This document shows, piece by piece, positions 1 to 46,399 of a stretch of DNA of 64,000 nt. Every line of letters begins with the position of its first letter. Position 1 is the first letter of the stretch. The notes under the pieces were generated by a model, which saw only the letters and a list, made by a program, of their open reading frames with translations, was not told the DNA's origin and ran no database searches. Source of the DNA: an uncultured Nitrososphaerales archaeon (GTDB lineage Archaea > Thermoproteota > Nitrososphaeria > Nitrososphaerales > Nitrososphaeraceae); the NCBI GenBank assembly GCA_963695855.1, contig CAVOHZ010000003.1:352001-416000 (forward strand), in the 5' to 3' direction. A program made the translations under genes and the position numbers.

Positions 1-1169
1 TTTTAGAAGACAAAGTAGATTATGCTGCGAAATTTGGAAAAATAGAATCTAAAATAATACAAAAAAGAATCCAGAATTACCTGGATCAGTTATTTCTTTA
101 TCGTTCTCGTATTTTAATTAGTGATCTCTATCTTGAAAAAATGGTATCGGAAAAGGGGAAAAGTATTCTTATTACAGGATCTCATGGCTTAATAGGATCT
201 GCACTTATTCCGTTATTAACGAATATAGGTGATCATAAGATTACTCGTCTTGTAAGAAGTACAATTAATAAAAGTAATCATTCTACTTCAAATGAAGCTA
301 ATGAAAAAATAATATACTGGGATCCTAAACATAAACAACTAAATCATCATGACCTTGAGGGGTTTGACATAGTCATTCATTTGGCAGGTGAAAATATTTT
401 TGGAAGGTGGACAAATACAAAAAAACAAAAAATATTTGATAGTCGTGTTGAGGGTACGAAACTTTTTGTTGAGGGTACGAAACTTTTGTCTGAATCTTTA
501 ACTAAACTATCAAATCCTCCATCATTATTAATATGTGCGTCAGCAATTGGATATTATGGAGATAAGCCCAACGAATATCTTACAGAGGATAACAATCCGG
601 GACAAGGATTTCTATCTGAGGTATGTCAAAAATGGGAAAATGCAACACTAGATGCATCTAAGGTAGGAATAAGAGTAGTAGATACACGTTTTGGTATCGT
701 ATTAAGTCCAAAAGGAGGAATTTTAAAAAAATAACTCACATCTTTCAAATTAGGTCTTGGCATATCAATTGGATATAAACATCAGTATATGAGCTGGGTC
801 TCAATAGAGGACGTTATAAAAATTATTTTTTATTCTATAATAAACCCATCAATCCAAGGAGCTGTTAACGTAGTATCACCAAATCCAGCTACAAATCTGG
901 AGTTTTCCAATATGCTCAAAAAATTATATAATACAAAGTTGTTAATATCAATCAATCAAAATATAACCGAACTCATTTTTGGACAAATGTCTGATGAATT
1001 ACTATCTACAATAGCTATGTCATTCCCAAAAAAGTTAGTTTCAACTGGATACAAGTTTTTTAATCCAGATTTGGAGGACACACTCAGATTCCTACTTGGA
1101 AAAATGAAATTAAATAATAATAATAGTCTTCAGAGATCAAATATGAAAAATCAAAACATGTCAAAATAA
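1..1169 (+). pseudogene. SRPBCC-domain/TIGR01777 (YfcH/SDR39U1-like) epimerase fusion, 5' end outside window, broken by an in-frame TAA
   Basis: Frame is open from nt 3 (LEDKVDY...LFLYRSRIL, SRPBCC C-terminus-like) into ILITGSHGLIG, HLAGENI, CASAIGYYG, VCQKWE. TAA at 732-734 is followed in frame by LTSFKLGLG..QYMSWVSIED (ORF 789-1169). A 21-bp tandem duplication (VEGTKLF/VEGTKLL) lies at about 447-488. Confidence 0.8.
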
Positions 1170-1496
1170 AAAAAACAAATATTAGGATAAATTATAATCT
1201 CGCTCAAATTGGTAAAACAAATGAATTAAGTCATGTAAGAATATAAGAATATCTTTTAATCCGATAGAGAGTAATTTCTCAGACCTATCTACAAATTTAG
1301 AAAAATAAGATTAGTTATGAATCAGTTTTTCTATTTCATTTCTTCATATTTATTAAATATAAATCATTATCCTAAATATTTTTTAATATCTTTTAAATTG
1401 TGTTGATGATGGTTTTAAACAAAAATAAACCTTAAAATATTTTGATTTTTGAGAAGTAAATCCATCTCCTGTATAACTATCAATAGTTAAATTATG

Positions 1497-1510
1497 CTAG
1501 TTGGCACTAT
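1497..1510 (+). promoter_or_regulatory. Palindromic motif CTAGT-TGGC-ACTAT, about 20 bp upstream of TTTTATAT box
   Basis: Matches the copies at 4757-4771 and 4918-4932 in sequence and in spacing to the TATA box. Confidence 0.5.
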
Positions 1511-1558
1511 GTTGTATATTACATCCATGTTTTTATATTATAAATCTGAATTCAGTTT

Positions 1559-2125
1559 ATGTTGAAACATGATCACAGCACGAGGAATATAATATTATAC
1601 TCTACGTTAGCAGGATTTATATCAGCTTGGGCAATTTCAGGATTATTAGTTATTGTTGATATTATATCACAAACACCAATAGGTACGTTCTTTGCAGTAA
1701 TAGGATCATCTCTTGGTTATTATGATACCTCTGTATCACAATATATTGGATTTGCACTACATATTGCAACAGGTACTGTAGCAGGTAATATTTTTGGTCA
1801 AATAGCTTTATTTTGGAACAAACTATTCCCATATAATTTCAAATTAGGAATAACTTATGGAGTAATAGTTAGTGTTTCTCTGTGGGCAATATTATTCCTA
1901 CCTCTAGCTACATTTGTAATTCAACCCAAACTCGATGCATTTGCACTATCTGCTCCAAATCAATATCTATTTATAATAGCTAACCACTTTCAAGGACTTT
2001 ATCCACTTGTCGCCATAGGATCTTTAGGATTTCACATAATATATGGAATTGTGTTGGGATTCATGATATGGAGAATGATCGATTTAAAAGTATTTGTACC
2101 AATCAACAGAGAACCAATACAATAA
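1559..2125 (+). CDS. Integral membrane protein (about 4 TM, with His residues in TM segments)
   Basis: 188-aa ORF with hydrophobic helices, ALHIATG and GFHIIYG motifs; TATA at about 1531. Confidence 0.75.
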   Translation: MLKHDHSTRNIILYSTLAGFISAWAISGLLVIVDIISQTPIGTFFAVIGSSLGYYDTSVSQYIGFALHIATGTVAGNIFGQIALFWNKLFPYNFKLGITYGVIVSVSLWAILFLPLATFVIQPKLDAFALSAPNQYLFIIANHFQGLYPLVAIGSLGFHIIYGIVLGFMIWRMIDLKVFVPINREPIQ

Positions 2126-2381
2126 TCTTTAAGATTTGGATACAGAAATATGAAAATCCTTGTTGCAACAAGCATGAAAACCCAGGAAACTACTTCACCA
2201 TTTTTTATATCTGTTATAATAAAAATGAAGATCGAAGATTTAACTAGTATCGTTGTGAGATGAAAATAAATATATAAATTATTTTATCACATTGAGGACT
2301 AATTAGAATGTTAAAAAACTATCGTTACTTTTTATAAAATGAAATTCTATTTTGAAAACAAACTATAAGTAAGAACTGTAT

Positions 2382-3755
2382 ATGTACAATAACAAAAATA
2401 AAAAACAACAAAATTTAAGAGTGCTAGTAACTGGAGCAACTGGATTTATTGGTAGTAGAATTGTTAAGAGACTTTTAGCCGATAGAAAATATTATGTTAG
2501 ATGTATGACAAGAAATCCCGATTGTATTTATGAACTTTTTAATTTAAGTGGTGATATCATAGATGTTGTAAAAGCTGATGCTTCAAATTATTTAGAATTA
2601 GTAGAAGCCCTAAAAGAGGTGGATGTGGCTTTTTATCTTATACATTCTATGGAAGGTTCATCAAAAAAATGGAAAGAATTCTCTAAAAGAGATAGAACTG
2701 CTGCTGAAAATTTTGCTAAAGCAGCCTCAATAACAAATACAAAAAGAATAATTTACCTGAGTGGTCTTATTGATACAGATCATAAGGATTTATCTGAGCA
2801 TATGAAAAGTAGAAAAGAAGTAGGAGATATTTTAAGGACTTCAAAGGCCTACGTTACAATATTTCGTGCTGCTGTTATTTTAGGTCAAGGAGGTGGTTCC
2901 TTTCAAATGTTACAATATCTAGTGGAAAGGCTTCCGATGATGGTATGTCCTAAATGGGTGTTGACTAAATCACAACCTATATCAGTAGATGATGTAGTAA
3001 CTTATTTAGTCAAGTCAATAGAAACCAAGGATACAGTTAGTCAAGATTATGATATAGGCGGACCTGAGATTCTTAGCTATGTAGATATGATGAAAAGATA
3101 TTCAAGTATTCTAAAAAAATCATTAAAAATCATTATTATTCCATTTTTGACTCCTAGGCTTTCCTCTTATTGGATTGATCTTATTACTCCTGTAAAAGCA
3201 TCACTTGCTAGACCATTAATAGATAGTTTAAAACATGAAGCAGTAGCTCATAATAATGAAATCCAAAAGTTAATTCCTATTAGACTAATGAACTTTGAAG
3301 AATCTATTAGAACTGCAATGAAAGAAGAAGTAAGAAGAACTAAGGTAACAAAAAAACAAAAAACATCAGACTCTCTTAACAGAACAATATTGTTTTTTTC
3401 ATTGATTTCTTTGGGAATAATTGGTTCAACATATTATTTTTTAGATAATAGAAGCGACATTGTAACCCCTCTCTGGATAATATTAGCCACTGTATGGTAC
3501 TTTGGAATTTTATTTGCTTTATTTTTCGTCAAAAATGGTGCAAGACTAGGTTCAATGGTAGGAGGTATTATAGGATGGATAACATTAGTATTCTGGTTAT
3601 TCAATAGCATACATTTGATAACTCATAATTTGATTGATTTCTCATCTCAAATTGTTGTGATTATGATTCGAAATTTTGTTGGAGCCATTGTAGCTGGATT
3701 GGTTATAGCTGCTTCCCATAATCTCTTCCATAAAATCAGAATATTAGGAAATTAA
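2382..3755 (+). CDS. YbjT-like NAD(P)-binding atypical SDR with C-terminal transmembrane domain
   Basis: VLVTGATGFIG, AFYLIHSM, LSEHMKSR, FRAAVILG, QPISVDDV, TPRLSSYW motifs; about 4 TM helices at the C-terminus. Confidence 0.85.
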   Translation: MYNNKNKKQQNLRVLVTGATGFIGSRIVKRLLADRKYYVRCMTRNPDCIYELFNLSGDIIDVVKADASNYLELVEALKEVDVAFYLIHSMEGSSKKWKEFSKRDRTAAENFAKAASITNTKRIIYLSGLIDTDHKDLSEHMKSRKEVGDILRTSKAYVTIFRAAVILGQGGGSFQMLQYLVERLPMMVCPKWVLTKSQPISVDDVVTYLVKSIETKDTVSQDYDIGGPEILSYVDMMKRYSSILKKSLKIIIIPFLTPRLSSYWIDLITPVKASLARPLIDSLKHEAVAHNNEIQKLIPIRLMNFEESIRTAMKEEVRRTKVTKKQKTSDSLNRTILFFSLISLGIIGSTYYFLDNRSDIVTPLWIILATVWYFGILFALFFVKNGARLGSMVGGIIGWITLVFWLFNSIHLITHNLIDFSSQIVVIMIRNFVGAIVAGLVIAASHNLFHKIRILGN

Positions 3756-3818
3756 AATAAAACAAGAAAATAAAATAAAATAATTTCTTAGAGACATATG
3801 GACATTAAGTTCCTCATT

Positions 3819-4706
3819 TCAATTATTCATTAGCGATTTCATAGTAGTAATTATATCATCAATTTTCCCGAGATCAAGATAAACCTTTTCATATTTTTCT
3901 AATAATTCAATTTGAGAGTTAGATGCTAATTTAATTGCATTACCTCCAACAACAATAGGATTATTAAAAGATTTACGAATTTCTTTTACTAATCTGGTTA
4001 CTGAACTTATATTTTCTTCTAACGTAACAGATATGATAACGAGACTGGGATTGTTATTATTCAAATACGAGTTAATAGAATTCGTTGGAAGAGGAGAGGT
4101 AATATTAAAAACTTCATAGCCTTTTTGAAGTAATAATGATTCAATGATTTTACATCCTATACTATGAAGTTCTCCTTCAGGAGTACATATTATTATTAGT
4201 TTAGGATTTAATGAATTTTTAGAAATTTTTTTATTAGCATTTTTTTGATTGATTAAATCAATTAGATTATTTACTGCATTACTGCATACATGTTCTGTTG
4301 CAACATCGATTTCTCCATTTACCCATTGATCACCTATCCTATATAATACAGGTATCAAGATTTTCTCATAAAAATCTAATAACGAATATACTGATTTTGT
4401 ATATTCATTGTATATGTTCATCAATTCATTTATTTGATACATTTTTAATCTTTCGAAAAGTGTTTCTTGTAATGTTTCATTTACTTTCATGGATTTTGAG
4501 AAATCAAGGTTATGGTGAGCCAAAAATTTTATAATTGCAGATTCATTTCGGTATTCTTCTGTAATTTTATTAATATTTATTTGAGATAGTGGACCTAAGT
4601 ATTGCTTCGTTATTTGTTGAGATGTTTGTTTTTCTTTATTCCATTTACTTTCAACAATATAAGCATAATCAATATTTTTTACTTTTTTTATTCTAATATA
4701 CACCAA
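3819..4706 (-). CDS. Cobalamin-binding (CarH/LitR-type) regulator with atypical N-terminal putative DNA-binding domain
   Basis: IGDQW-x9-EH (four-helix cap) and GELHSIG (ExHxxG) plus IISVT and VVGG Rossmann strands; N-terminus YIRIKKVKNIDYAYIVESKWNKEKQTSQQITKQYLG. Confidence 0.85.
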   Translation of the reverse strand: MVYIRIKKVKNIDYAYIVESKWNKEKQTSQQITKQYLGPLSQININKITEEYRNESAIIKFLAHHNLDFSKSMKVNETLQETLFERLKMYQINELMNIYNEYTKSVYSLLDFYEKILIPVLYRIGDQWVNGEIDVATEHVCSNAVNNLIDLINQKNANKKISKNSLNPKLIIICTPEGELHSIGCKIIESLLLQKGYEVFNITSPLPTNSINSYLNNNNPSLVIISVTLEENISSVTRLVKEIRKSFNNPIVVGGNAIKLASNSQIELLEKYEKVYLDLGKIDDIITTMKSLMNN

Positions 4707-4756
4707 TATGGTATAATTTTCAACTCTTTTATTTATATTTAGTGCATAACTGAACT

Positions 4757-4771
4757 TATAGTGCTAACTAA
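4757..4771 (-). promoter_or_regulatory. TAGT-N4-ACTA palindrome upstream of the B12-regulator promoter
   Basis: Minus strand reads TAGTTAGCACTATA, then about 19 nt, then TATAAATA; a weaker second copy CAGTTATGCACTA follows the first. Confidence 0.55.
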
Positions 4772-4917
4772 TATTTAGATAAAAGAATCCAATGTAATTT
4801 CAGAAATAATATATATAAAATAAGAAACATTGTACTAATAAATTTTAAACAGAATATTCTATAAAATAAAACTTTTATTTCTGCCATTTATTTAATAATT
4901 CAACATTTTCGTTCATA

Positions 4918-4932
4918 ATAGTTAGCACTATA
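4918..4932 (+). promoter_or_regulatory. TAGT-N4-ACTA palindrome upstream of ORF 4972
   Basis: TAGTTAGCACTATA (4919-4932) is the exact reverse complement of 4757-4770; TTTTAAATA lies about 20 nt downstream. Confidence 0.55.
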
Positions 4933-4971
4933 GAAGATAGTTTGTAGTCGTTTTAAATATTTATTTGCAAA

Positions 4972-5316
4972 TTGTACACTAGAGATATGAAACAGACTAT
5001 TGATTATCCACTAGAATTCTCTGTTAAGATGACTTTTGGCGAGAGTTACCTTGTAGGAAAAGCTTCTAGTAACGGTAGAAATTATAATATAAATATTCAG
5101 GGAGGACGAAAAGGAATAGTTTTACCTAGAGAAATGGTAAAAGCATTTGGTGAAGTTATTGTTAGCTTTTTTACTGAAAAGAAAAATGAGATAATGTTAA
5201 CTGCGAAAGTAGAGGCGGGTTTGGATTGGATCGAAATCTATGATGATTTCTTAATTTGGTCTTTGGCAAATGATCTCCCTATATCCATGATCATTGATTA
5301 TCAGAGATTGACCTAG
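4972..5316 (+). CDS. Hypothetical protein, divergent from the B12 regulator
   Basis: 114-aa ORF (ATG at 4987 is an alternative start) with normal globular composition and a TATA box upstream. Confidence 0.55.
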   Translation: MYTRDMKQTIDYPLEFSVKMTFGESYLVGKASSNGRNYNINIQGGRKGIVLPREMVKAFGEVIVSFFTEKKNEIMLTAKVEAGLDWIEIYDDFLIWSLANDLPISMIIDYQRLT

Positions 5317-6109: not shown

Positions 6110-6733
6110 TTGAAAATAGAACAAAAATTTGAAGAATCTAGTACATATTCACTATTCTTGTTTGCAATTAGATCAAATGTAACAAGAGACTATTATCTAA
6201 GAAGATTAAGGATTTTCTTTAATCATATTAATCTAGAACCTGATAAAACAATGGAAGAAAGATTTAATTACTTTGCTAGAAAAAGAACAAAAGATCCGAA
6301 TTGGGCATTTAATGCAGTAACAAAATTCTTGCAATTTCAAAAGGAAAGGGTTAAAATGGAAGAGATTACAGAAGCGACACTTCGTAATTTCATAAAAGCA
6401 ATAAAATTATTCTGTGAAATGTCAGATATCAAAATAGAATGGAAAAAGATAACTCGAGGATTACCAAAGATAAGAAGACATGCTGATGATAGATCACCAA
6501 CAATAGAGGAAATACAGAAAATTTGTGAATACCCTGATAGACGGATAAAAGGGATTGTCTATACAATGGCTTCATCTGGGATAAGACTTGGTGCATGGGA
6601 TTATTTATACTGGAAGGATATTCAACCAATAGAACGTCAAGGTAAAATCGTAGCAGCAAAAATTATTGTCTATGCTGGAGACGATGAAGAGTATTTTTCG
6701 TTTATAACTCCTGAAATTAGTAGTACAACCTAA
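6110..6733 (+). pseudogene. Tyrosine recombinase/integrase, C-terminally truncated
   Basis: WKKITRGLP, DRSPTIEEI, MASSGIRLGAWDYL (catalytic Arg), YFSFITPE, then ends before the HxxR and Tyr boxes; paralogue of 15953-16967. Confidence 0.85.
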
Positions 6734-12717: not shown

Positions 12718-13794
12718 ATGAGATTTGTCGGTTCAAAAGGAATCAAATTCTCTGATATTAGTATAAATTGTTGTATTTGTTTTATTGATTTGGTCGATTC
12801 AACTAAAAACACTTTAGCGTTTTGCAATTCGAAAGATACTAGAAGATATTATGAAACCTTTATCAATTCGGTATCCGAGATAGCTAAAAAGAATAAGGCT
12901 AAAATAATAAAAAATATGGGAGATTCACTTTTATTTTACTTTCCCAAGACATCTGACAGTACAAATATCTCAGCTTTTTATGAAGCATTAGAATGTTCTT
13001 TTGAGATTCTTGACAATCGTCATAATATCAACGACAAGTTATCAAGAGAAAACTTTCCACCATTTAACTACAGAATCAGCTTGGATTATGGAGTAGTAGA
13101 AATAGCACTATCTGGAGAATATAATCAACTCGATTTGTTTGGATCAACTGTGAATTTATGTGCAAAAATTAATCAATTATCTTTACAGAATGAATTGAGG
13201 ATAGGAGATAATCTTTATAGAATATTGAACGCTTATTCTCCATTTTTTGAAAAATTATATAATTTTACCAAGTCAGAACAATATAATATCTCTTCAGATA
13301 TTAAATATTTTACATATACAATAGAAAGAAGACCATCTAAGAGTGAATATTTAAAAGATCAGGATATTTCAGATTCTAATAAAGAACAGGAAAGTCAACA
13401 AATGATTTATAGGAATTATGATCTCAGAAAAAAAGTCATTTTAGTAGATGACGATGCTGAAGTATTAACAACCATAGAATTATTTTTAATAGGACATGAC
13501 TTTTATGTTACATCCTTTATCGACCCTACTATGGCAGTAGAGTATCTGCGATCAAATCCTTTTTATCAGAATCTATTGGTAATTGCAGATATTAGAATGA
13601 GCAAATTAAATGGATTTCAACTTTATCAGCAAATCAAGAGTATAGATCCTACTATAAAGGTTCTTTTTATTACTGGTTTGTATATTGCAGATGAAATATT
13701 GACTTTGATTCCAGGATTGGACAAAGATCTCATAATAACAAAGCCTATTGATAAAGAAACATTTGTAAATAGAGTAAAAAAATTATTTTTATGA
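12718..13794 (+). CDS. Class III adenylate/guanylate cyclase domain fused to C-terminal receiver domain
   Basis: FIDLVDST, KNMGDSLLFYF, DLFGSTVNLCAKI; REC VILVDDD, IADIRM, FITG, TKP. Confidence 0.9.
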   Translation: MRFVGSKGIKFSDISINCCICFIDLVDSTKNTLAFCNSKDTRRYYETFINSVSEIAKKNKAKIIKNMGDSLLFYFPKTSDSTNISAFYEALECSFEILDNRHNINDKLSRENFPPFNYRISLDYGVVEIALSGEYNQLDLFGSTVNLCAKINQLSLQNELRIGDNLYRILNAYSPFFEKLYNFTKSEQYNISSDIKYFTYTIERRPSKSEYLKDQDISDSNKEQESQQMIYRNYDLRKKVILVDDDAEVLTTIELFLIGHDFYVTSFIDPTMAVEYLRSNPFYQNLLVIADIRMSKLNGFQLYQQIKSIDPTIKVLFITGLYIADEILTLIPGLDKDLIITKPIDKETFVNRVKKLFL

Positions 13795-19554: not shown

Positions 19555-20453
19555 TTACAATGAGATAAACTTGTTATACAACATTATTTTAAGAACAGTC
19601 TCTGTTTTTTGCATACTGAATTTCTTTGACATCAAATGTTCTCCCAGTACTCGTTTTAATGATGAGAAGACTACTTCAGCAATCCATCTTTGTCCTGTGT
19701 TTTTTAGTTGTTTGTATTTTTCATATCCAATATTTTGATTCAGATGTACCTGTTCATTTCTAGATTTGCATTTTCTAGTTTTACCACTTGCATTCTTTCT
19801 GACAGATATTATAGGTTCAATATACAATTTGTCTAACAAATTGAAATTAACTGTACTATCATATGCTTTATCTGCATATGCTTTTGTAATGTTATTGTTG
19901 TTAGAAATCTCTTTTATCATAGGCACAAACCTCTTGCTATCATGAACCGTGCCTTTAGTTACTCTAAACGAGATTATCTGTTTTGATTTTATATCAACTG
20001 CAATATGTAATTTTAGATATTTCCTCGCGTTCTTTCTTCCATTTATCCTCAATGTAATTGCCTTTCTTAGATGATGTGGTAAAACCAGATGCATCAATCA
20101 ATTACCACTGTTATTGATTTACCTATTCTGTTATTGTTGTAAATATCCCTAAAATGAGTACACATTTTCTTGATGCATCTTCTCAGTTGAGTAAAGTGTA
20201 TTTCCTCAATTTTGATGTATTCTGCTAATCCTCTTACAATGCCTTGTACTGTTCTGTATGAAATAGAAAATCCAATTTTTATAAATGCTAGAAATTGTAC
20301 ATAACTATCACGATACAGAAATGGTCTACCAACTTTCTTTTTGTTCATAGTCACTAACTCCCTTCTTTGTAATTTAATAAACCCAATATCCATAAGAATA
20401 TGACCACGTTCAATTAGGGATTCATTATATGCAGACCAGTTTCTCTTGGGCAT
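19555..20453 (-). mobile_element. IS5-family (IS903-like) transposase, frameshifted
   Basis: NWSAYNESLIERG, VGRPFLY, YLKLHIAVD, HDSK, ADKAYDS, RWIAEVVFSSLKR; ends degenerate. Confidence 0.9.
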
Positions 20454-24647: not shown

Positions 24648-25697
24648 TGTTGTACTTACCAACATAGGTTACAATTTCATTTACCGAGATAGGTAACACT
24701 TCCTAATCTGCTAGGAAGTGTATACAAAAATAGAATTACAAACAAAATTTAATTTAATTCATGAGAAAGAGTCGACTGGAGATACTGTAACTAATATCTG
24801 TAATAGATATCATACATCTAGAAAGTCATACTACAAATGGAAGAACAGGTACCTTGAGAATGGAATAGACGGTTTACGGGATAAAAGTAGGAAACCATAT
24901 AATATACAACCTGGAAAAGTAACAAATGAGATAGAACAGGAAATATTGGATTTACGTGTAACAAAAAGATTTGGTTGCAATCGCATAAGGTTCAGGTTAA
25001 GACGACTGAATGATATCTCCTTCAGTACAAAAACCATCTACAAGATACTGAAAAGACATGGACTGAACATACTAAGATGCAAGATCAGAAATAGAAAATA
25101 CAAAAGATTTGCAATGGAAAAACCCAATCAAATGGTACAGATGGACATTTTAGGACCATTTTACCTTGAGAATTCTACTCAAAAGAACTATTTTATCAGT
25201 TGTGAAGATGACTGTTCAAGAAAGGTAACAAGTGACTGGTCTGAAAGAAAACGAAGTGTAGATGTACTACAGGTACTGGAAGACTACATAGTAGAGAATG
25301 GTAAACCTCTCAAGGTACTGCATGATAATGGTAAACAGCTTACATCCAAAATATTCAGACGTTTTCTACAACGTAACAACATTAAAGATAAATCCATACC
25401 TGCTAGATATCCACAACTACAGGGTAAAATTGAAGCATATAACAAGATAGTCAAAAATGAATTTTTGGCAATAGAAAATATTTCCAACAGAGAAGAAGGA
25501 AAGAGAAGATATTCCATGTTTGTCAAAGCATACAATGAAACAAGAGAACATGGTGGAATCAATGGTCACACACCATCTGAAATGTTTCTTATGAAAGGAA
25601 GATTAAATAGTTGTAAGAATATCAAAACAAATAAGCAGATAAAAAGTGTTACCCATGTTGGTAAGTGAATCTGTTACCTATCTGTGTAAGTACAACA
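24648..25697 (+). mobile_element. IS481-family element, apparently intact
   Basis: TGTTGTACTTAC...GTAAGTACAACA TIRs; 6-bp TSD ACTAAT at 24642-24647 and 25698-25703. Confidence 0.95.
24718..25668 (+). CDS. IS481 transposase (HTH plus rve)
   Basis: YYKWKNRY..GL.DKSRKP, QMD, DDCSR, HDNG, PQLQGKIE, YNETREH. Confidence 0.95.
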   Translation: MYTKIELQTKFNLIHEKESTGDTVTNICNRYHTSRKSYYKWKNRYLENGIDGLRDKSRKPYNIQPGKVTNEIEQEILDLRVTKRFGCNRIRFRLRRLNDISFSTKTIYKILKRHGLNILRCKIRNRKYKRFAMEKPNQMVQMDILGPFYLENSTQKNYFISCEDDCSRKVTSDWSERKRSVDVLQVLEDYIVENGKPLKVLHDNGKQLTSKIFRRFLQRNNIKDKSIPARYPQLQGKIEAYNKIVKNEFLAIENISNREEGKRRYSMFVKAYNETREHGGINGHTPSEMFLMKGRLNSCKNIKTNKQIKSVTHVGK

Positions 25698-25986
25698 ACT
25701 AATAATTGATTTTCTAGCTCAGAAATAGTTGAAGCTTCTTGAGTATTTCCATCATTAAGTGACTCTTTTGCATCCATTAGATTATCCTTCAATTCAAGTA
25801 TATTTAACGTCATCAGTGTTTGTATGTCCTTATAGTCTTATTAGCTCCAGTTGGCGTAGTTTGGTTCTGCATAGGAGCAGCTCCAGTTTGGTTCTGCATT
25901 GATGGGCTACTAAGGTTTGACATATGTGTTTGTCCTTGAATAGTATTGAGGAGGACAGATGGAATAGATAATATTTCAATTGCTAA

Positions 25987-26893
25987 GAGCCTATCCCAAA
26001 AATAGATAGGAATATAGCTCGTTGGTTTCCTATCATATATGATAATGTTTAAGAATAAAAAGTATGTTAGAACAATTATACGTATTCCAGACGATCTTTG
26101 GAATGAAATTAAAAATATTTTACCAGACGAAAAAGCAGAGAATACAATAGGCCGTCCAATTGTTCCTTATAGAAAAGTACTTGATGGCATCATGTTTATC
26201 CTGAGGACTGGATGTCAATGGAAAATGTTACCCAAAGAATATGGTTCTGGTTCTACCTGTCATAGACGATTTCAAGAATGGAGAGAATCAGGTATATTTG
26301 ATAAATTATGAAGCAGACTGTTAAAAATATACGATAACAAGAGAGGAATCAAATTGACATGGCAATCACTTGATAGCATATCCGTAAAATCACCTTTAGG
26401 GGGGCGATGACCGGAAATAATCCTACTGCTAATAGAAGTAAATTAGGGACGAAAAGACATATTCTAACAGATAAAGATGGTATTCCTCTATCTACTGTTA
26501 TAACATCTGCAAATACTCATGAGGTTACCGTTGCAATTGATACAGTTGATAGCATGGTTCTCAAAAGATCATCATATAAACTAAATGATGGAAAGAAGAA
26601 AAAGAAGACTAAAAAGCACAATCTATGTCTTGATAAAGCATATCATTCCAAAGATGTAGAACAAGAAATTATCAAGAGAGGATACATTCCGCATATACGA
26701 CACAGAAGAGAAGAACAAATATTTCGTAGAAAACATCCTGCAAGAAGATGGGTTTTAGAACGAACAAATTCATGGCATAACAGATTCAGGAAATTATTTA
26801 CACGGTATGAAAAGAAAGAGGAGAACTATCTGGGTCTTGTACAATTGGCTAATAGCATAATTATCTACAGGAGGATAATTTTGGGATAGGCTC
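25987..26893 (+). mobile_element. IS5-family (IS427/IS1031-like) element with defective transposase
   Basis: TIR GAGCCTATCCCAAAA/TTTTGGGATAGGCTC, TAA duplication; LRTGCQWKMLP, DKAY, RWVLERT; premature TGA at 26309-26311 and frame change at a G-run near 26400. Confidence 0.95.
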
Positions 26894-27014
26894 TAAGGAT
26901 GTATAGACAAGAATAGTTAATTTTTTCAACTCGACAAATGTAATACTATATTATTTATAACAATTGTTCTAATTTCTGATAATATATAATATATAATAAT
27001 TTAGAATTACAGAA

Positions 27015-27977
27015 GGCTCTGTAGAATCCATTTAATAATAATTAAATTTAGCATCCTATGAAGATTGTATGTAATACATCTGAAAGTCAATTCTCTGTTC
27101 TGCATTCAATTCTCTGTTCTGCATTCGTATTAATCTGGATTATATATGTTCTCCAAACAATCTTTTTATGACTGATACAATAGTTTCATCTTTGTTACGT
27201 TGATTGTACAGAATCTTTGAATAGCCACGTTTCATTTCTTTTCTGTATTTGCCACGAGTTTTCGATATTGGTACATCTTTTTCATATCTTGATGGTATAA
27301 CACTGAATCCGTTTAGTTTCTCTCTAACTAGTACATGATTATCCTCACTATCATATGCTTTATCAGCAACAACTACCGATAATGGTTTTATTTTTGATAT
27401 TCTTGTTGTCACTGGTCTAAAATCTATGTTATCATGTCTTGTTGGAGCTCGCCTTATCTTTATAGAACAGACTATTTGTTGTAATACATCTGCACCAATT
27501 GACAATTTAGCATATTTCTTCCTTCGTAGTTTTGCTCTGCTAGTATAGTACTCTGATGCATGTGTTATTTTGAATCCAGTCGAATCTATGCCAGTAAATA
27601 TGCGTCTTGTTCCTGTGAATAAGATAAAAGATGAGATTATCTTTCCAAGCATCACTACATTGATTCTATCTGTGAATTTCTGTAATGTTGTATAATGTGG
27701 TATTTTGGATAGTTGTAAAAACAATCTCAAATAGTATGCTTCAACAAGCCAGTCTGTAAACATTCGATAACTCTTACCTTCATACTGTCTTATTATAACA
27801 AGTACTATGTGTTGCCATACTGTGTAAATGTGGTTGCTCTTTCTATGCAAATATAATGGTATTCTGCAATGTTTGAGAATACGTAATAGTTGATCTGCTA
27901 ATCTAACATATTTTGATTGTTGTTTGTTCAATAATTAATGGTAGAATGTTGCTAGCTATGATGGTTTCTACAGAGCC
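27015..27977 (-). mobile_element. IS5/IS4-superfamily DDE element with truncated transposase
   Basis: TIR GGCTCTGTAGAA/TTCTACAGAGCC; 8-bp TSD TTACAGAA; GIDSTG, ADKAYDSE, RNKDETIVSVIKR; early TAA at 27140 and a 19-bp tandem duplication at 27087-27124. Confidence 0.93.
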
Positions 27978-31415: not shown

Positions 31416-32585
31416 TATCTAAGTCAAGTGCCGTCATTAACGTCATAATACCATCTTCCAAATCTATTATCAAGATATTCTGATATTACATCTTTTTGTT
31501 CTTCTATACTGGTATAGAATCTGTTTGCACATACATCTGATTTTATACGTTGATTTACGTTTCTCTCATTTGGATTAAGGTATGGTGCTCTCTTTGGAAG
31601 ATGTATTACAGTGAGCCAGTCTTCTTTCTGTGCATTTACATATTCTCTAGTCATCTTGCTTATATGAAATGAAGCGTTATCCCATATCAGTACAATTCTT
31701 TTCCAACTATTTTTCATTACATGTATCTTGAGATTCTCAAGATGGTGTATCGCATTGGTGGAATTTGATCTGTCATAGAAATCATACAACAGGTTCTGTT
31801 CAGGCCATAACATGGATATGTACATTGAGAATTTCTCTCTACTACCATTATGTCTTATTTTTTGCTGTTCACCTTCAAAACTCATTGACTTGCGAATACA
31901 TGGTTTCTGTGTTACTATAGTTTCATCTTCAAACACCAGCATTACCATCTTTTTTTGAGAGCCGAGGCTACTTGTTTGTAGTTCTTTACTTTTTTCTTTC
32001 CCTCATCATAATCTGGTCCCTGTTCAAGTTCCAGTTTAGGTCTTTTACATCTGATACCCATACCTTTTAGTATCCTTTGAAGATGTCTGAAACTTATTGG
32101 AATATCAAGTTCTTCTGTAAGACATGTTGCCAGTGATCTTAGGCTCCAAGTGTTTCTGACATAACCAAAAATATTGGGATCGTTAAAAAGTACAGAAAGT
32201 ATAATCTCTCTATCTTCCTCTGTTATACGGGATTTTGTACTACCTGTCTTCTTTATCTCTAGTCCATCAGTTCCTGTCTGGATGTATGCTGATATCCATC
32301 TCTGGACTGATCTGATACTCACACCATGTTCCTTTGCTATGTCTGCAAAAGTTTTACCATTGCTCTTCTGGAGTACTGCCAGTAATCTGCGATAATGTCT
32401 CTTGTCTGCAGTATTTTTCATCAATCTCCTTATACTGTTCTTCTGTACGGTAGTGATGTTGAATTTAGAAGAACCACGGTACATAGAATTATGATATTCT
32501 GGATACCTTAAGCTTTACCTATTCAAGAATTTAGACCTGGTAGTTAAAAAGATATGACATCAGACGAGGCACTTGACTTATCATA
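31416..32585 (-). mobile_element. IS630-family element, two ORFs joined by -1 frameshift
   Basis: TAAGTCAAGTGCC inverted ends near TA; HTH ORF 31942-32484, DDE ORF 31424-31948 (FEDE, WDNASFH, PYLNPNE); A7G slippery run. Confidence 0.92.
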
Positions 32586-38538: not shown

Positions 38539-41427
38539 TTATAGAATGAGCGATGCTTTTTCTAAAATTTCATTCAAGTTTTGTTTATTTGCCATCAGGT
38601 CGTTCCACGGATTATATGTGTTAGTATTTAATATATCAGGAACATGGAGAAGCATAAAATTTGTTGGATCCACATCTAAAAGATCCTCCCATCTAACAGG
38701 AAAAGACACTGCAGCAGATTCTACAGGACGTGGGGAAAAAATCGATGCTATTGTTTTCCCTCTACTATTTTGATTATAATCAAAGAATACCTTACCACTC
38801 CTTTTTGACGTGTCCCATTCCGTAGTTATTTTTTTTGGGTAGCGCCTGGTCATACTCCGAGCTATTACTCGTGCAAATGATCTTGTCTGGTCATAAGTAT
38901 ACAAATTATCTATAGGAACGAAAATGTGTATTCCTGTTTTGCCCGAAGTCTTCACATATGATTTTATTTTCAGATCATCAAATAATTTTTTTAAATCTAG
39001 TGCCACCTCAGCTGTTGCTTGAAACCCTTTAAGACTATATTCAGGCTCTTTATGAATTGTAACATTACCTTGCACGTTTAAATATACATAAGGATCTAAA
39101 TCAAAAATGATAAAATCCGGAAAATTTAAACTACATTTTTCTGGGTATAACAATCCGTCATTTCCCTCTGCATATCCAAAGTCGGTGATTCTACTATACC
39201 ACGGGTGAATCTCTATACAGCCTAAATTAGCTAACCAAAGAAGAGTTTCTTTGTTGTTACACAAAACATAGTTAATAATACCACCATTTTCAGATTCAGA
39301 ATATATTTTTACTGTCCGTACAAAAGAGGGTTTATTTTGATCCCAATTTTTCTGATAAAATGATTTTCCTTTAATTCCATCAGGATATCTACTTAGGCTT
39401 AGTGGTCTGTCTATAAGATAAGGTAAAATATATTTACTAATTTTATCATAGTATTCAATCAAATCTTTTTTTGTAATTTGTCGATGAGTTGATGTTTTAT
39501 TCCAATACACTTTATTGAGATTTGAGAAATAAGAATAGGCATGATCATTAAAGACACTACGATTGTTTTTCTCCGTATTAATCCGAATGTTAGTCTTTTT
39601 ATTCTCGCTTAATCCATATTCGATCGTTGATTCTATTAGTTTTTTTGTATATCTTTCCTTTTCTATAAGACATTCTTCAGGTTTTTTATCTTCTCTAAGT
39701 CTCAAAAAGATAGGAGATTTCATTATATTATCTTTTGTCCAATCGCTAAATTTTATTTCTGCTACAATTTCTGGTTTTACCCATATAGTATCTCTGTTAG
39801 TATAAGGAACATAATCGATAGGACATCTTTCTGTTATTAGATTTTGTAGTTTTTCATATATTTGTGGCAGAGTTATAGAATCAAATCCACTTCCAGTATG
39901 TCCAACAAACTGAAATTTACCATCTGTGTGTCTAACCGCAAGTAAAAGTGATCCAAAGTATTTTTCTCGAGTCCCTTCACCCCTATTAAAACCTATAATT
40001 ACGCAATCTTGAGTTCTGATATGTTTTATTTTTAACCAATCGTGAGATCGTTTGCCTTGCATGTATTTACTTGATTTGTTTTTTGCTATCAGACCTTCCA
40101 AGCCCATACTTTTGGTAGTTTCATAAACTTCCTCACCAATTTCTTTAATAAAATCCGAAATCTTGATTCTAGTGTTTTCGCCAACAGTCTTAGACAAAAT
40201 TTTTCGTCTTTCCAAAAAAGGCATGTTCTGTAGGTTTGTTCCATTAAGATAAAGAATATCAAATAGATAATAAGTTGCTGGGATTTGTCTGGATAGGTTT
40301 TCAATATCCCTTTCATGGTCAAGATTCATTCTTTTTTGATGGTTCTGAAAATTCGGTAGTCCTGTTATGTTATCTAACACGACAATTTCACCATCAAAGA
40401 TTCCTGATTTACATCTTAAAACAGACTGTGTGACAGATTCTCTTGAAACTGGAGATTTTAATGCGCCTACTATTTCTGGATACCTATGAGTAATTATATT
40501 ACCACTTCGCGATTGTAATTGAACTATTTGGTTTGGATTGTCAATAAACATGATAGAACGTATCCCGTCCCATTTTATTTCAAAGACCCATTCTTTATTG
40601 TTAAAGGGACGATTTACCAATGTACATAACATTGGTTTAATTTTTGAAAATTTATCTAACTGATTTTTATGATCAGTTTCCATTTTTTGAGATGAAGTCC
40701 CTGATTTGACTACCGTTTTTAAAGGTAATTTTTTACTCTGAAATGTCTCTTTCAGTTGTAGTCGTCCATTCTGGTTCCTTTTATCTTGCTTGTCTCTCTC
40801 TGTTTTTAATACTCTGGACAAAACAGATCCTGATCTAGTCATAGTTGAATCTTCTTTACCTACTAACTCATCAGTGGCTTTGATTAGAAGCCAATGCCTT
40901 CCTTCTTTTTCAGTCTGTAGATTCATTCTCACTAGATAAAATTTTCCCTTTAATTTCTGACCTGATAGCACAAAAGTAATATTCCCTTTTTTGAATTGTT
41001 CTGATATATCAGATTCAGATATGAAAGTTCCGCTATCCCAAATGATAACAGACCCTGCCCCGTATTCTCCTTCGGGGATCAAGCCTTCAAAATATAAATA
41101 TTCCAGTGGATGGTCTTCTGTTAGAACTGCTAGTCTTTTTATTTTTGGGTCGAGTGAAATCTCTTTTGGTACTGCCCAGGATTTTAGTACACCTTCTTTT
41201 TTATCTTCTAATCTAAAATCATAATGCAATTTTCTAGCATTGTGTTTTTGTACCACGAACCTAGGAGCTTTATTCTGTTTTGATTTTTTTTGATTTCCTT
41301 TCGGTTCAGATGTTTTATCAAAATTTCTTTTTTTATTATATTTTTCTAATATTTTAAGATCACCATTAAACCCCAGAAAAATAGTGCCATTAAATTGCAA
41401 AAAGTAACAAAAATCAGGATGAAGCAC
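38539..41427 (-). CDS. ligD: Multifunctional NHEJ DNA ligase D (phosphoesterase-ligase-polymerase)
   Basis: PE: FVVQKHNARKLHYDFRLE, SWAVPK, EDHPLEY. LIG: EIKWDGIR, DGEIV, EGLIAK, WLKIK. POL: RYPDG, FDLDP, KTSGKTGIH, DYNQNSRGKT. Start position uncertain. Confidence 0.96.
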   Translation of the reverse strand: MLHPDFCYFLQFNGTIFLGFNGDLKILEKYNKKRNFDKTSEPKGNQKKSKQNKAPRFVVQKHNARKLHYDFRLEDKKEGVLKSWAVPKEISLDPKIKRLAVLTEDHPLEYLYFEGLIPEGEYGAGSVIIWDSGTFISESDISEQFKKGNITFVLSGQKLKGKFYLVRMNLQTEKEGRHWLLIKATDELVGKEDSTMTRSGSVLSRVLKTERDKQDKRNQNGRLQLKETFQSKKLPLKTVVKSGTSSQKMETDHKNQLDKFSKIKPMLCTLVNRPFNNKEWVFEIKWDGIRSIMFIDNPNQIVQLQSRSGNIITHRYPEIVGALKSPVSRESVTQSVLRCKSGIFDGEIVVLDNITGLPNFQNHQKRMNLDHERDIENLSRQIPATYYLFDILYLNGTNLQNMPFLERRKILSKTVGENTRIKISDFIKEIGEEVYETTKSMGLEGLIAKNKSSKYMQGKRSHDWLKIKHIRTQDCVIIGFNRGEGTREKYFGSLLLAVRHTDGKFQFVGHTGSGFDSITLPQIYEKLQNLITERCPIDYVPYTNRDTIWVKPEIVAEIKFSDWTKDNIMKSPIFLRLREDKKPEECLIEKERYTKKLIESTIEYGLSENKKTNIRINTEKNNRSVFNDHAYSYFSNLNKVYWNKTSTHRQITKKDLIEYYDKISKYILPYLIDRPLSLSRYPDGIKGKSFYQKNWDQNKPSFVRTVKIYSESENGGIINYVLCNNKETLLWLANLGCIEIHPWYSRITDFGYAEGNDGLLYPEKCSLNFPDFIIFDLDPYVYLNVQGNVTIHKEPEYSLKGFQATAEVALDLKKLFDDLKIKSYVKTSGKTGIHIFVPIDNLYTYDQTRSFARVIARSMTRRYPKKITTEWDTSKRSGKVFFDYNQNSRGKTIASIFSPRPVESAAVSFPVRWEDLLDVDPTNFMLLHVPDILNTNTYNPWNDLMANKQNLNEILEKASLIL

Positions 41428-41778
41428 AATAAATGATAAGATTTCTTATAATCGAAATAGATAGTAGTCAGATAGTGATTTCTTTTGCCAGATATGTTTT
41501 TCGAGATGAACATATTGTTAATCGATGTCACTATTCGATATCTCATTGTATCTTGAATATCTGTCAAAGATTTCACCAAATCTATCCTTCATTTCCCTCC
41601 TATTGAATTCAAAATAAAATTTTGAATGATGTGTCAATGGTATTTTTTACCTATTCCATTTGCATTATTGGAAGTTTTTTATGATTTGTTTTTGTTATCA
41701 TGCCATGTGTTTTTTTTTGCTGGTGATTCGTATTATCATTTTACAATATGTATCTTCGTTTCTAGTATTTGATTATTC

Positions 41779-42612
41779 TCATCTGGTTTTTGATTTCTGT
41801 TTTACATTGATACTGGCTTTAAGAGCCTCAAGTAAATCCGTAGTTTCTTCCAATCTTTCTTCTTTGGCAGCTTTAAATTTTTGTCCCTTTGATTTTGTTT
41901 CTATTAATTTTTCTAATTCTGCTAAGTAGGCGTCTGAATATTTTCCCATATCAAATCTCTCACTTGTGAGATTTTCGACTAGAGTTTTTCCTAAATTTAA
42001 TTCTCTTTCGTCGACTGTAGGTTGTGTATTAGCAGAAATGCCCTGAATCTCATCCATTGGCCTTATCTCGTCAAGATATTTTAGCTGATGCATAACAAGA
42101 CCTCTCTGATACGGTCTTAATGCAACAAGGTGTTCCTTATCTTTTAAAACAACCTTCCCTATCGCAATTTTATTGGTTTCATTGAGTATTTTAACAAATA
42201 AAGAGTATGCTTTATTCGTAATAGGTGGTAAATTTGACTTGTTCCTCTTATTCCTTCCATTGTCAGGACCGATGTAATAATTTTTCTCTATATATAGCGG
42301 ATCTAAATCATCTGAATTTATAAACTCGCTGATATCTATTGTATGAGTTGTTTTCAATTTAATTTTTTCCAGATCCTCCTTTTCCAAAATTACGTAATTA
42401 TCTTTAGAAATTTCATAGCCTTTTTTTATTTCGGTCCATGGAACTTCTCGTTCTTCTACAGGACACCATTTTTTGTACCTAATTCTGTGTCCCTTTTCAT
42501 CTAGTTGGTTAAAAGAGGAGTACTCTTCTTTTTGTGTAGCTACAAAAACTTGTACTGGTATATTTACTAACCCAAAGGATATACTTCCTTTCCATAAAAT
42601 TCGGCTAGCCAT
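41779..42612 (-). CDS. ku: Ku DNA end-binding protein
   Basis: LWKGSISFGLVNIPV, KGYE, YIEKNYYI, YSDAY, DLLEALKASI. Confidence 0.96.
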   Translation of the reverse strand: MASRILWKGSISFGLVNIPVQVFVATQKEEYSSFNQLDEKGHRIRYKKWCPVEEREVPWTEIKKGYEISKDNYVILEKEDLEKIKLKTTHTIDISEFINSDDLDPLYIEKNYYIGPDNGRNKRNKSNLPPITNKAYSLFVKILNETNKIAIGKVVLKDKEHLVALRPYQRGLVMHQLKYLDEIRPMDEIQGISANTQPTVDERELNLGKTLVENLTSERFDMGKYSDAYLAELEKLIETKSKGQKFKAAKEERLEETTDLLEALKASINVKQKSKTR

Positions 42613-45236: not shown

Positions 45237-46399
45237 ATGGTAAGTTAAGTCTCTAATCTTTTATCAACATTATTCTATCCATTTATCACAAATATAGAAA
45301 TGGATTTAGCTTTGTCATTACATCTTTCAACATGTGCCAAATACCCCTGTTAGGCTTGAATTATCTACTGTACACAAAAAAAAGAACTAGTTTCATTCAT
45401 GAAGAGTACTCATGATAAAGAGGAATACAGAAGAGCGTCTGCTATAAAGCAAAAGACAGAAGGAATACCTTATAGAACAATAGCCAGAAATGTTGGTGTC
45501 AATTATCGTAATGTGTATGACTGGATTAACAATTACAGAAAACATGGTCTGGATGGAATAAGAAATAAGAGAAAGAATGGAGGTAGAAAACCAGTAATAT
45601 CTACCGACAAAAACAAAGAGATGGTAAAAGACATAGTACTAAACAAGTCTCCTAAAACATTTGGTTATCTCAAAAATACATGGAGTATTAGGCTATTGGC
45701 TACGTATCTTTCCTCACTATTAGAAATGAATGTCAGTCCAATGCAAACATGGAGGATTATTCAAGATTTAGGCATAGCATACAAACAGCCAAAACTTGAA
45801 CTAGAAAAAGGAGAGGATTATGAGGAAAAGAAAGGAAAGATAGAAGGGTACAAAAAGATATCGTCTGCTCTTTTAAAAAAAGATTCTAATGGGATTTGAA
45901 GATGAAACATGGTTACACCTGCAACCATACATAACCAGGACATACATGAGAAGAGGAGAACAGCAAAAGATACTACACAGCGGATCTAAAAGCAAGGTCA
46001 ATGTATTCATAATACTTCTTTATCCATTAAATGGAATCAAATTCAATACAAGCAAGACAAGAAATAGCAATGATTTCATAAACCATCTAAACAGCATCAA
46101 AAGATATGTAAGAAAAAGGAACATCAAGAGATTCATACTTGTAATAGACAATGCATCATTTCATGTAAGCAAAAAGACGAAACAGTTTATAGAAAAACAA
46201 TCATACTGGCTAACTGTACTATTTCTACCAACTCGTGCACCATTCCTAAATATAGTAGAAACAAAAGTAAATAGGAATCTGAAAAAAGACATATGCGCTA
46301 ATTACAACTATGAAACAGAAGAAAATCTGTTATGTACTGTAAGAAGGTATCTTAGATCTATGGATAGTTGGCCTAAATTCTGATACTTAACTTAGGATA
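45237..46399 (+). mobile_element. IS630-family element, two ORFs joined by -1 frameshift
   Basis: TAAGTTAAGT/ACTTAACTTA ends; ORFs 45399-45899 and 45889-46383 (FEDE, IDNASFH, PFLNIVE); TTTTAAAAAAAG slippery site; related to 31416-32585. Confidence 0.92.

Follow-up and report, generated by a model that had tools for sequence, protein, structure and literature searches.

A candidate light- or B12-controlled gene switch beside a CarH-type cobalamin protein gene in a soil ammonia-oxidising archaeon

Which genes could a protein with a B12 module of the bacterial light-sensor type control in an archaeon, and through which DNA element? The question is raised by a locus in a 64-kb stretch of DNA (64,000 nucleotides, the window) from a soil ammonia-oxidising archaeon, in which ORF 3819-4706 had been proposed, in a sequence-only reading, as an autoregulated B12 sensor that shares an upstream operator with its neighbours. 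IS fragments are abundant in the window. The genes of the locus and the parts of the putative regulator are as follows.

141..1169 (+): TIGR01777-family oxidoreductase, conserved neighbour, broken by an in-frame TAA at 732-734
1559..2125 (+): predicted target gene (fam1), 188-aa multi-pass membrane protein, weak DUF6789 look-alike
2382..3755 (+): NmrA-like NAD(P)-binding protein with a C-terminal membrane region (fam2), conserved neighbour
3819..4706 (-): regulator gene, 295 aa, TTG start (MVYIR...)
4509-4706: regulator residues 1-66, new N-terminal beta-sheet domain
4254-4469: regulator residues 80-151, four-helix bundle with Wx9EH
3933-4196: regulator residues 171-258, Rossmann B12-binding domain with His181
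4987..5316 (+): predicted target gene (fam7), 110-aa small protein of unknown family, likely start ATG 4987

Both CarH-type cobalamin motifs that had been read from ORF 3819-4706 are present, and the Pfam, alignment and fold comparisons agree with them. Using regular expressions, Wx9EH was located at W128-x9-E138-H139, and ExHxxG-x41-SxT-x25-GG was found to span residues 179-255, which fits the CarH/LitR pattern E/DxHxxG-x41-SxV/T-x22-27-GG exactly and puts the His at the lower axial ligand position. Every one of 36 diverse family members has His181, and conservation reaches at least 90% at W128, E138 and H139. [quoted passage not shown] When the AF2 model (pLDDT 87.1) was searched with Foldseek, the best matches were dark- and light-state B12 photoreceptor domains (8jbs, TtCarH, photocobilin and LitR), which outranked methionine synthase. 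According to the accessible text of one source, the Wx9EH and ExHxxG-type motifs jointly define CarH homologues, and Wx9EH, which caps the adenosyl group, is specific to photoreceptor-type CarH and missing from MetH and CarA (PMC8156234). Judged from its sequence, the regulator combines a B12 module like that of bacterial light sensors with an N-terminal domain of unfamiliar type. The start of the protein is kept in 20 of 20 aligned homologues, and the family comprises at least 3056 clusters at 90% identity, which annotation pipelines mislabel as MerR regulator or methanogenic corrinoid protein MtbC1. With narrow scan patterns, all archaeal regulator loci found were in soil-type Nitrososphaeraceae, and the same patterns found none in the more light-exposed marine relatives.

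The DNA element consists of a distal box (R1), a proximal box (R2) and a TATA-like box, and the copies in the window are listed below; the TATA-like boxes were assigned from the sequence.

1498..1510 (+): R1 box of the membrane-protein gene, one mismatch, TTGGCAC variant, PWM 19.5 bits
1518..1529 (+): weak R2-like stretch of the membrane-protein gene, offset 18
1530..1545 (+): TATA-like box of the membrane-protein gene
4726..4740 (-): TATA-like box of the regulator promoter
4741..4750 (-): R2, proximal box (GTTATGCACT) of the regulator promoter, direct repeat of R1, abuts the TATA box
4758..4770 (-): R1, distal operator box of the regulator's own promoter, exact 13-mer, PWM 20.3 bits
4919..4931 (+): R1 box in the divergent promoter of the 110-aa gene, exact 13-mer, PWM 21.4 bits
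4941..4950 (+): weak R2-like stretch of the 110-aa gene at the expected offset, 3 mismatches to TTA[G/C]CAC
4951..4963 (+): TATA-like box of the 110-aa gene

The three R1 sites lie where they had originally been placed, and the reported 14-bp identity of two of them holds, 4758-4770 (-) and 4919-4931 (+) being exact inverted copies. They are also the only PWM matches of at least 14 bits in the window, and all are within 3.3 kb of the regulator gene. Statistics within the window are post hoc, because the pattern came from the same data: the 13-mer TAGTTAGCACTAT with at most one mismatch occurs 3 times in 64 kb against 0.11 expected (1 of 100 shuffles reaches 3), with at most two mismatches 4 times against 2.33 expected, which is not significant, and TAGT-N4-ACTA 7 times against 1.44 expected (0 of 100 shuffles reach 7). 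All three copies of TAGTTAGCACTAT stand in promoters adjoining ORF 3819-4706. The element was first described as the dyad TAGT-N4-ACTA, and its enrichment stands, but the dyad is not the best description; an oriented asymmetric box replaces it, because conservation in the PWM peaks in the supposed N4 spacer (the GCAC region) and the sites also point toward genes.

To follow the box beyond the window, we used 53 related Nitrososphaeraceae loci, each fetched by a match to the regulator gene, and in this set the proposed shared operator was recovered upstream of both orthologues and paralogues, above background. Of 42 regulator genes, 25 are preceded by TTAGCAC, where 0.42 would be expected, and 98 of 116 PWM matches of at least 11 bits are intergenic, although ORFs make up 71% of the sequence. 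Outside the training (regulator-upstream) regions, 51 of the 54 sites of at least 14 bits are intergenic, with shuffles giving about 5 in total, and about 66 of the 86 strong sites are oriented toward a called gene start. Autoregulation, as suggested earlier, is likewise supported, since the position of R1 ahead of the regulator's own gene is conserved in related loci and a site scoring 14 bits or more lies in the 120 nt upstream of 31 of 55 regulator genes. No match of this strength was found in 11 of 42 regulator-upstream regions, several of which have degenerate copies or an operon-level site; some other regulator genes stand last in operator-headed gene clusters. For the two predicted targets, a site lies within 120 nt upstream in 15 of 25 members of the membrane-protein family, at the same place in the orthologous loci L023, L024 and L049, and 7 of 8 members of the 110-aa family carry one. 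The latter gene most likely starts at ATG 4987 and not, as first read, at TTG 4972, because its orthologues (8 family members) align from there.

The position of the box relative to the core promoter is similarly regular. At the window sites, R1 is followed after 17-19 nt by the A/T-rich TATA-like box, and the start codon comes about 30 nt on. R2 is a weaker direct copy about 19 bp downstream of R1, abutting the TATA box where a BRE is expected, and the whole element (R1, R2 and TATA) takes about 45 bp. The same order, R1, about 7 nt, GTTAGGCACTA and TATA, is seen in the paralogous loci L004 and L008-L017. Of 55 distal-type sites, 43 have R2 at offset 18-20, and in 22 of the 55 it has at most one mismatch, compared with 2.9% of controls; for 55 of 85 sites, the TATA box starts 27-31 nt past the R1 core. 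Within the window, R2 is clear only at the regulator promoter; the two target promoters could be controlled by R1 alone, because R2 has 2-3 mismatches there. The regulator mRNA is probably leaderless, since its start codon follows about 20-25 nt after the end of the TATA box.

We propose, at about an even chance, that ORF 3819-4706 encodes an autoregulated repressor that is released by light. The predicted transcription factor would combine the CarH-type AdoCbl module with a new N-terminal beta-sheet DNA-binding domain. In the dark, its AdoCbl-loaded oligomer would bind R1, (A)GTTAGCACTA(K), together with the TTA[G/C]CAC-like R2, and on R2, at the BRE position against the TATA box, it would keep TFB and TBP off the promoter. 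Photolysis of the cofactor by light would break up the oligomer and lift the repression. Predicted members of the regulon in the window are the regulator gene, under negative autoregulation, the genes of the membrane protein and the 110-aa protein, and possibly that of the NmrA-like protein; related genomes would add genes for small membrane proteins, a cyclase-like protein and an FAD/NAD oxidoreductase.

The opposite sign of regulation had been preferred in the sequence-only reading, which used the distal box alone. The same protein at R1 and R2 would then recruit TFB and TBP, and the genes would be on when the cofactor-loaded form binds. Archaeal activators, for example Ptr2 and TFB-RF1, bind just upstream of BRE/TATA, and an activator would suit the distance of about 18 nt between R1 and the TATA box, the degenerate R2 at both window target promoters, and the replacement of any recognisable BRE by R2, through which the promoters could depend on a recruiting factor. 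However, in most related promoters R2 takes the BRE position and touches the TATA box, the TATA boxes are not weak (a score of 7 or 8 of 8 in 32 of 60 box-bearing promoters and in 94 of 354 other genes), and a dark-binding activator would turn stress-type genes off in the light. Repression is favoured because R2 occupies the BRE position and the TATA boxes are at least as good as elsewhere, and we regard activation as unlikely. As far as the accessible text of two sources goes, the characterised class I LitR/CarH members are repressors on direct repeats that overlap the promoter (PMC9758184, PMC8156234).

The signal that releases the proposed repressor can be considered from the gene content. 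The composition of the regulon fits a photo-oxidative stress response, and the neighbours of the regulator gene are membrane proteins and oxidoreductases. The 188-aa protein matched Pfam DUF6789 below cut-off (E=0.0021) and, in an Atlas search, only uncharacterised Nitrososphaerota clusters, and the 110-aa protein had no Pfam or NCBIfam match. The family of the NmrA-like protein (Pfam NAD_binding_10 4.3e-16, NmrA 4.6e-12) is represented in 16 loci, and one of its 17 members has a site. The gaps that separate it from adjoining cluster genes measure -17 to 73 nt in distant clades, compared with 256-293 nt in this clade; the window gene lacks its own operator, which leaves co-transcription or no regulation. 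The TIGR01777 family is found in 15 related loci, the NCBIfam model matches both pieces of the broken window gene (1.3e-46 and 1.1e-18), and no operator was found in the 140 nt available upstream. HSP20/CDC48 genes, which adjoin one paralogue class, were left out of the regulon because their own promoter has a different conserved palindrome and no operator match. Instead of light, the regulator may report cobalamin status or redox state, since B12-binding domains can serve purposes other than light sensing, the family was detected in soil-type Nitrososphaeraceae alone, and no photolyase or other classical light-response gene was found in the window or seen adjoining the regulators. Yet, in the neighbour families examined, no gene of cobalamin synthesis or transport bears the operator, and the Wx9EH adenosyl cap, photoreceptor-type-specific as far as the source describes it (PMC8156234), is conserved here. 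A sensor of this other kind is rather improbable in our judgement.

DNA binding by the regulator would fall to its N-terminal domain, which consists of three long beta-strands in the AF2 model (pLDDT >90). R5, K7, Y14, Y16, V18, W22, Q31, Y36 and G38 are invariant in 46 sequences, and the domain also occurs alone or fused to a different C-terminal domain. Pfam and NCBIfam gave no MerR or HTH family in the regulator, and a profile of the domain found no relative of known function in PDB or Pfam; a sub-threshold PDDEXK_9 match in 3 of 20 members and the top PDB profile match (E=1.4) were taken as chance. By sequence and profile searches it is a conserved three-stranded beta-sheet domain outside known families, and we infer that it is a putative new DNA-binding domain. 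Beta-sheet DNA-binding domains of several types exist, such as AbrB, ribbon-helix-helix and AP2/integrase-arm. As this role is indirectly derived and R2 lies exactly on the BRE position, an ordinary transcription factor, or one among numerous TFB paralogues that reads R2 as a special BRE, may bind the box, with the B12 protein a mere member of the regulon. Against this, a TFB would leave the additional copy 19 bp upstream unexplained, and the domain, basic and invariant, occupies the place of the DNA-binding domain in CarH. The sites also cluster within a few kb of the regulator gene, their only constant neighbour, a constancy partly built in because every locus was fetched by its match to that gene. 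We give this explanation the same low probability as a non-photic signal.

Finally, IS fragments are frequent in the window and two of the boxes are inverted relative to each other at a distance of 148 nt, but an origin by chance or from a mobile element (a MITE at 4757-4932 had been named as the refuting case) has a negligible probability, since BLAST finds a single copy of 4707-4971 in the window, related loci keep only its promoter-proximal parts, and box position and orientation are conserved across genera. No riboswitch or other Rfam family was found in the window.

In conclusion, a light-released repressor is our preferred reading, and these observations point to a candidate gene switch, governed by light or B12, of a kind as yet undescribed in archaea; our literature search found no published description of this regulator-operator system. 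More tentatively, and with somewhat less than even confidence, it may represent the first archaeal family of B12-photoreceptor transcription factors, with a CarH-type sensor and a new beta-sheet DNA-binding domain, several paralogues per genome in soil ammonia oxidisers, and a photo-oxidative regulon gated at BRE/TATA. Ammonia-oxidising archaea drive nitrification and are inhibited by light, and the literature search found no light-sensing regulator for them. If the proposal is true, B12 photoreception extends from bacteria to archaea, a bacterial-type sensor module controls an archaeal, eukaryote-like promoter, a new small DNA-binding domain is added, and ammonia-oxidising archaea have a direct transcriptional light response. 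With one protein, an element of R1, R2 and TATA, and a small conserved regulon, the system is testable.

Compared with known systems, the regulator is closest in design to CarH/class I LitR, the AdoCbl photoreceptor repressors of Thermus thermophilus, Myxococcus xanthus and Bacillus megaterium, which form an AdoCbl-bound oligomer in the dark that disassembles in light. To the best of our knowledge, the described CarH homologues are all bacterial. The four-helix-bundle and Rossmann module is the same, as is the order of DNA-binding domain (putative here) and sensor. CarH has a direct-repeat operator that overlaps the core promoter and also stands ahead of its own gene, according to the accessible text (PMC8156234), and the putative operator here would be comparable, with direct repeats R1 and R2 that reach over the BRE position and are likewise found ahead of the regulator gene. 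In contrast, the MerR winged helix is replaced here by the three-stranded beta-sheet domain, and the NCBIfam CarH model aligns with residues 57-259 only (48.5 bits, cut-off 400). The CarH/LitR operator has three or four contiguous 11-bp repeats, compared with two repeats about 19 bp apart here, and our promoter is of the archaeal BRE/TATA type, with a predicted regulon that lacks carotenoid and photolyase genes. The MerR-family B12-binding protein of Chloracidobacterium thermophilum (PDB 8jbs/8jbt) is the best match to the sensor module both in sequence (E 1.4e-11) and in fold (E 1.9e-12, TM 0.77 on target), but it is bacterial, about 20% identical, and has no counterpart to the N-terminal domain. 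The corrinoid proteins of methyltransferases (MtbC/MtaC/MttC) and the MetH cobalamin domain belong to the same B12-binding superfamily, and differ in that the regulator has the Wx9EH cap and the extra N-terminal domain; an MtbC/MtaC assignment was rejected at 34-44 bits against cut-offs of 215-420, and no partner methyltransferase genes were found among the 19 neighbour families put through Pfam. Archaeal repressors of the MDR1, LrpA and TrmB type occlude BRE/TATA, and, compared by site geometry alone, they resemble the present system in a box on the BRE against the TATA box of a leaderless-type promoter, while the sensor domain sets the regulator apart from them.

The operator is a conserved, oriented, bipartite and promoter-embedded element that goes with a large family of archaeal proteins with a CarH-type sensor, represented in the window by the regulator (ORF 3819-4706, minus strand). 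A scan of species-representative genomes gave 73 related loci, 53 of which are archaeal (labelled Nitrososphaeraceae, Nitrososphaerales, Nitrososphaera or Nitrosopolaris, plus one Thermoproteota), and the other 20 are bacterial, with a match confined to the B12 domain. Between -110 and -20, 25 of 42 regulator-upstream regions contain TTAGCAC (expected, 0.42). Using a 15-nt weight matrix trained on 35 regulator-upstream sites, 116 matches of at least 11 bits were obtained in 499 kb, 98 of them intergenic, though ORFs make up 71% of the sequence. Matches of at least 14 bits number 86, and 54 of these lie beyond the regulator-upstream training regions (51/54 intergenic); block shuffles yield about five in total. 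At this threshold, the window holds only the three sites on which the sequence-only reading was built, all present as it described:

4758-4770, minus strand: exact copy of the 13-mer TAGTTAGCACTAT
4919-4931, plus strand: exact copy of the 13-mer TAGTTAGCACTAT
1498-1510: copy of the 13-mer with one mismatch

The two exact copies form an exact inverted pair with identity over 14 bp, and downstream of each of the three sites an A/T-rich TATA-like box comes after 17-19 nt, with a start codon about 30 nt beyond it. Counts in the window are post hoc, since the pattern was taken from the same data: the 13-mer occurs three times with at most one mismatch against 0.11 expected in 64 kb (three were reached in 1 of 100 shuffles), TAGT-N4-ACTA occurs seven times against 1.44, and with at most two mismatches the 13-mer occurs four times against 2.33, where the excess is gone. 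The real test of the element is its conservation in other genomes; the observation is confirmed and stands on firmer ground than the sequence-only reading could show. An origin of the intergenic segment 4707-4971 as a MITE was ruled out, because no second copy exists in the window and related loci preserve its promoter-proximal parts only.

When all strong sites were aligned on the box, the layout proved not to be the dyad TAGT-N4-ACTA proposed earlier. The central GCAC, the supposed spacer of the dyad, is the best-conserved part of the element, and the boxes are oriented, with about 66 of 86 strong sites facing the start of a called gene and roughly another 12 facing an uncalled short ORF. 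Downstream of this strong box (R1) lies a weaker direct copy (R2; TTA[G/C]CAC-like). Among 55 distal-type sites, the offset is 18-20 nt in 43, and R2 has at most one mismatch in 22, compared with 2.9% of random controls; in 26 of 85 sites, the strong box is the proximal one. The TATA box begins within 2-4 nt after R2, and the TATA 8-mer starts 27-31 nt past the R1 core in 55/85 sites. The window has a clear R2 at 4741-4750, in the promoter of the regulator itself, and degenerate versions (2-3 mismatches) at both target promoters. Because the start codon follows the TATA start by about 30-35 nt, as derived from the site alignment and spacing, the transcripts of operator-bearing genes are probably leaderless, which would place R2 at about -40 to -34, the expected position of the BRE.

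The genes under this operator were surveyed by clustering 501 ORFs from the related loci and the first 12 kb of the window, and a site was counted if it lay at most 120 nt upstream.

Operator sites upstream of gene families (members with a site/all members)
Regulator family: 31/55
Membrane protein (window 1559-2125): 15/25
Small protein (window 4987-5316): 7/8
80-aa membrane protein: 5/5
Pyr_redox_2 oxidoreductase: 4/5
Cyclase-like protein: 4/11
NmrA-like protein (window 2382-3755): 1/17
TIGR01777: 2/16, in the opposite orientation

The gene order of the window is the same in three related loci (L023, L024 and L049). In distant clades, the small protein, the NmrA-like protein, the membrane protein and the regulator are tightly clustered in one direction, -17 to 132 nt apart, behind a single operator. 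Since a site lies either at the regulator gene or at the head of its cluster, the autoregulation suggested earlier appears to be kept, directly or via the operon. In four Nitrososphaera loci, the 6 kb before the regulator contain seven, six, six and four operators. In addition, several archaeal genomes have two or three regulator paralogues (same-genome sets of loci: L001/L010, L003/L008/L048, L005/L011, L007/L012 and L006/L019/L024), in which the N-terminal domains are nearly identical, the neighbours differ and the boxes differ slightly (TTGGCAC vs TTAGCAC); cross-regulation or mixed oligomers among them are possible. Other paralogue classes adjoin HSP20/CDC48, RTX/ABC or DUF2795 genes. The promoters of the HSP20/CDC48 genes, which adjoin one paralogue class of the regulator, have no operator and carry instead a different conserved palindrome, TTACAT-N2-TGTAA, just downstream of the TATA box and some 60 nt ahead of the HSP20 genes (L008, L010, L012-L015, L018, L025 and L026), which is possibly a heat-shock operator.

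The archaeal family linked to this operator carries a new N-terminal domain. Residues 1-40 of the regulator are modelled by AlphaFold2 as three long antiparallel beta-strands (pLDDT >90); the domain is basic, and R5, K7, Y14, Y16, V18, W22, Q31, Y36 and G38 do not vary among 46 sequences. Its profile found no relative among PDB sequences (best E 1.4) and no match in Pfam. A search of the first 75 residues against 1.84 billion cluster representatives returned 102 clusters. Most of these represent proteins of some 280-310 aa that share the B12 module; in about ten, of some 165-185 aa, the N-terminus is shared and the C-terminal part is different and unassigned. Proteins of some 120-130 aa encoded on long contigs have this domain alone (proteins of the two shorter kinds: P0202, P0205, P0206, P0208, P0209, P0213, P0215, P0219, P0221; P0223, P0330), and the domain is therefore a portable module. 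We infer that it binds DNA from where it sits in the protein, from its charge and conservation, and from the operator evidence.

For the mechanism, we give about an even chance to repression, in which CarH-like logic has been moved onto an archaeal promoter. The regulator oligomer loaded with cofactor would bind R1 and R2 in the dark and occlude BRE/TATA, and photolysis by light would free it from both. Repression is favoured because R2 sits on the BRE position against the TATA box, because TATA quality at operator promoters at least equals that of other genes (score 7 or 8 of 8 in 32/60 vs 94/354), and because LitR/CarH are described as repressors on promoter-overlapping direct repeats in PMC8156234 and PMC9758184. 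The same three points speak against the earlier proposal that the regulator may act as an activator, which we regard as unlikely. That it senses cobalamin or redox rather than light is quite unlikely, with the lack of any photolyase link found and the soil-only distribution found on its side, and it is just as doubtful that a factor other than the regulator binds the box.

Several other features of the window were recorded. The TIGR01777-family gene 141-1169 has an in-frame TAA at 732-734, beyond which the frame runs on with both pieces matching the family, and an exact 21-bp in-frame tandem duplication (446-487); a pseudogene, a sequencing error or read-through is possible. A 207-aa ORF at 6110-6733 weakly matches the N-terminal part only of an XerA-type tyrosine recombinase profile (32 bits vs a cut-off of 220) and is probably an integrase fragment beside the regulon. 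The window is an IS-rich region with many transposase genes (DDE or rve) and pieces of such genes, in several cases divided between neighbouring ORFs (19555-20453, 24718-27931, 31424-32484, 45399-46383, 49567-50019 and 58572-59270). LigD (962 aa, with ligase, primase-polymerase and phosphoesterase domains) beside Ku at 38539-42612 gives this archaeon a complete NHEJ pair of the bacterial type. At 12718-13794, a nucleotide-cyclase domain is fused to a receiver domain; the weight matrix found no operator at this gene, though a shorter cyclase-like family in Nitrososphaera loci has one.

In the 295-aa regulator, Pfam places B12-binding_2 at residues 80-151 and B12-binding at residues 171-258, with the motifs W128-x9-E138-H139 and E179-x-H181-xx-G-x41-SxT-x25-GG; according to PMC8156234, CarH homologues are defined by the two motifs together. 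Across a 36-member family alignment with identities as low as 23%, His181 never varies, and conservation of W128, E138 and H139 is at least 90%. The names given to family members by public pipelines are 'B12-binding domain-containing protein', 'MerR family, light-induced transcriptional regulator' or 'methanogenic corrinoid protein MtbC1'; the latter two labels are unsupported by domain analysis. Literature searches in a library with few subscription journals turned up no account of a CarH-like regulator from archaea or Thaumarchaeota, which is not proof that none has been published. The best structural matches of the AlphaFold2 model (pLDDT 87.1, pTM 0.73) are domains of B12 photoreceptors (8jbs, TtCarH, photocobilin and LitR), ahead of methionine synthase, and the closest solved sequences are the Chloracidobacterium MerR-family B12 domain (8jbs, E 1.4e-11) and Thermus CarH. 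Pfam and NCBIfam find no MerR or other helix-turn-helix match in the regulator, and the NCBIfam CarH model scores 48.5 bits (cut-off 400), over the sensor part only; the regulator is outside CarH/LitR as that family is defined. Two full-length members (P0147 and P0176, alignment A2) lack Wx9EH and retain the N-terminal domain, and they recall the B12-independent CarA beside CarH.
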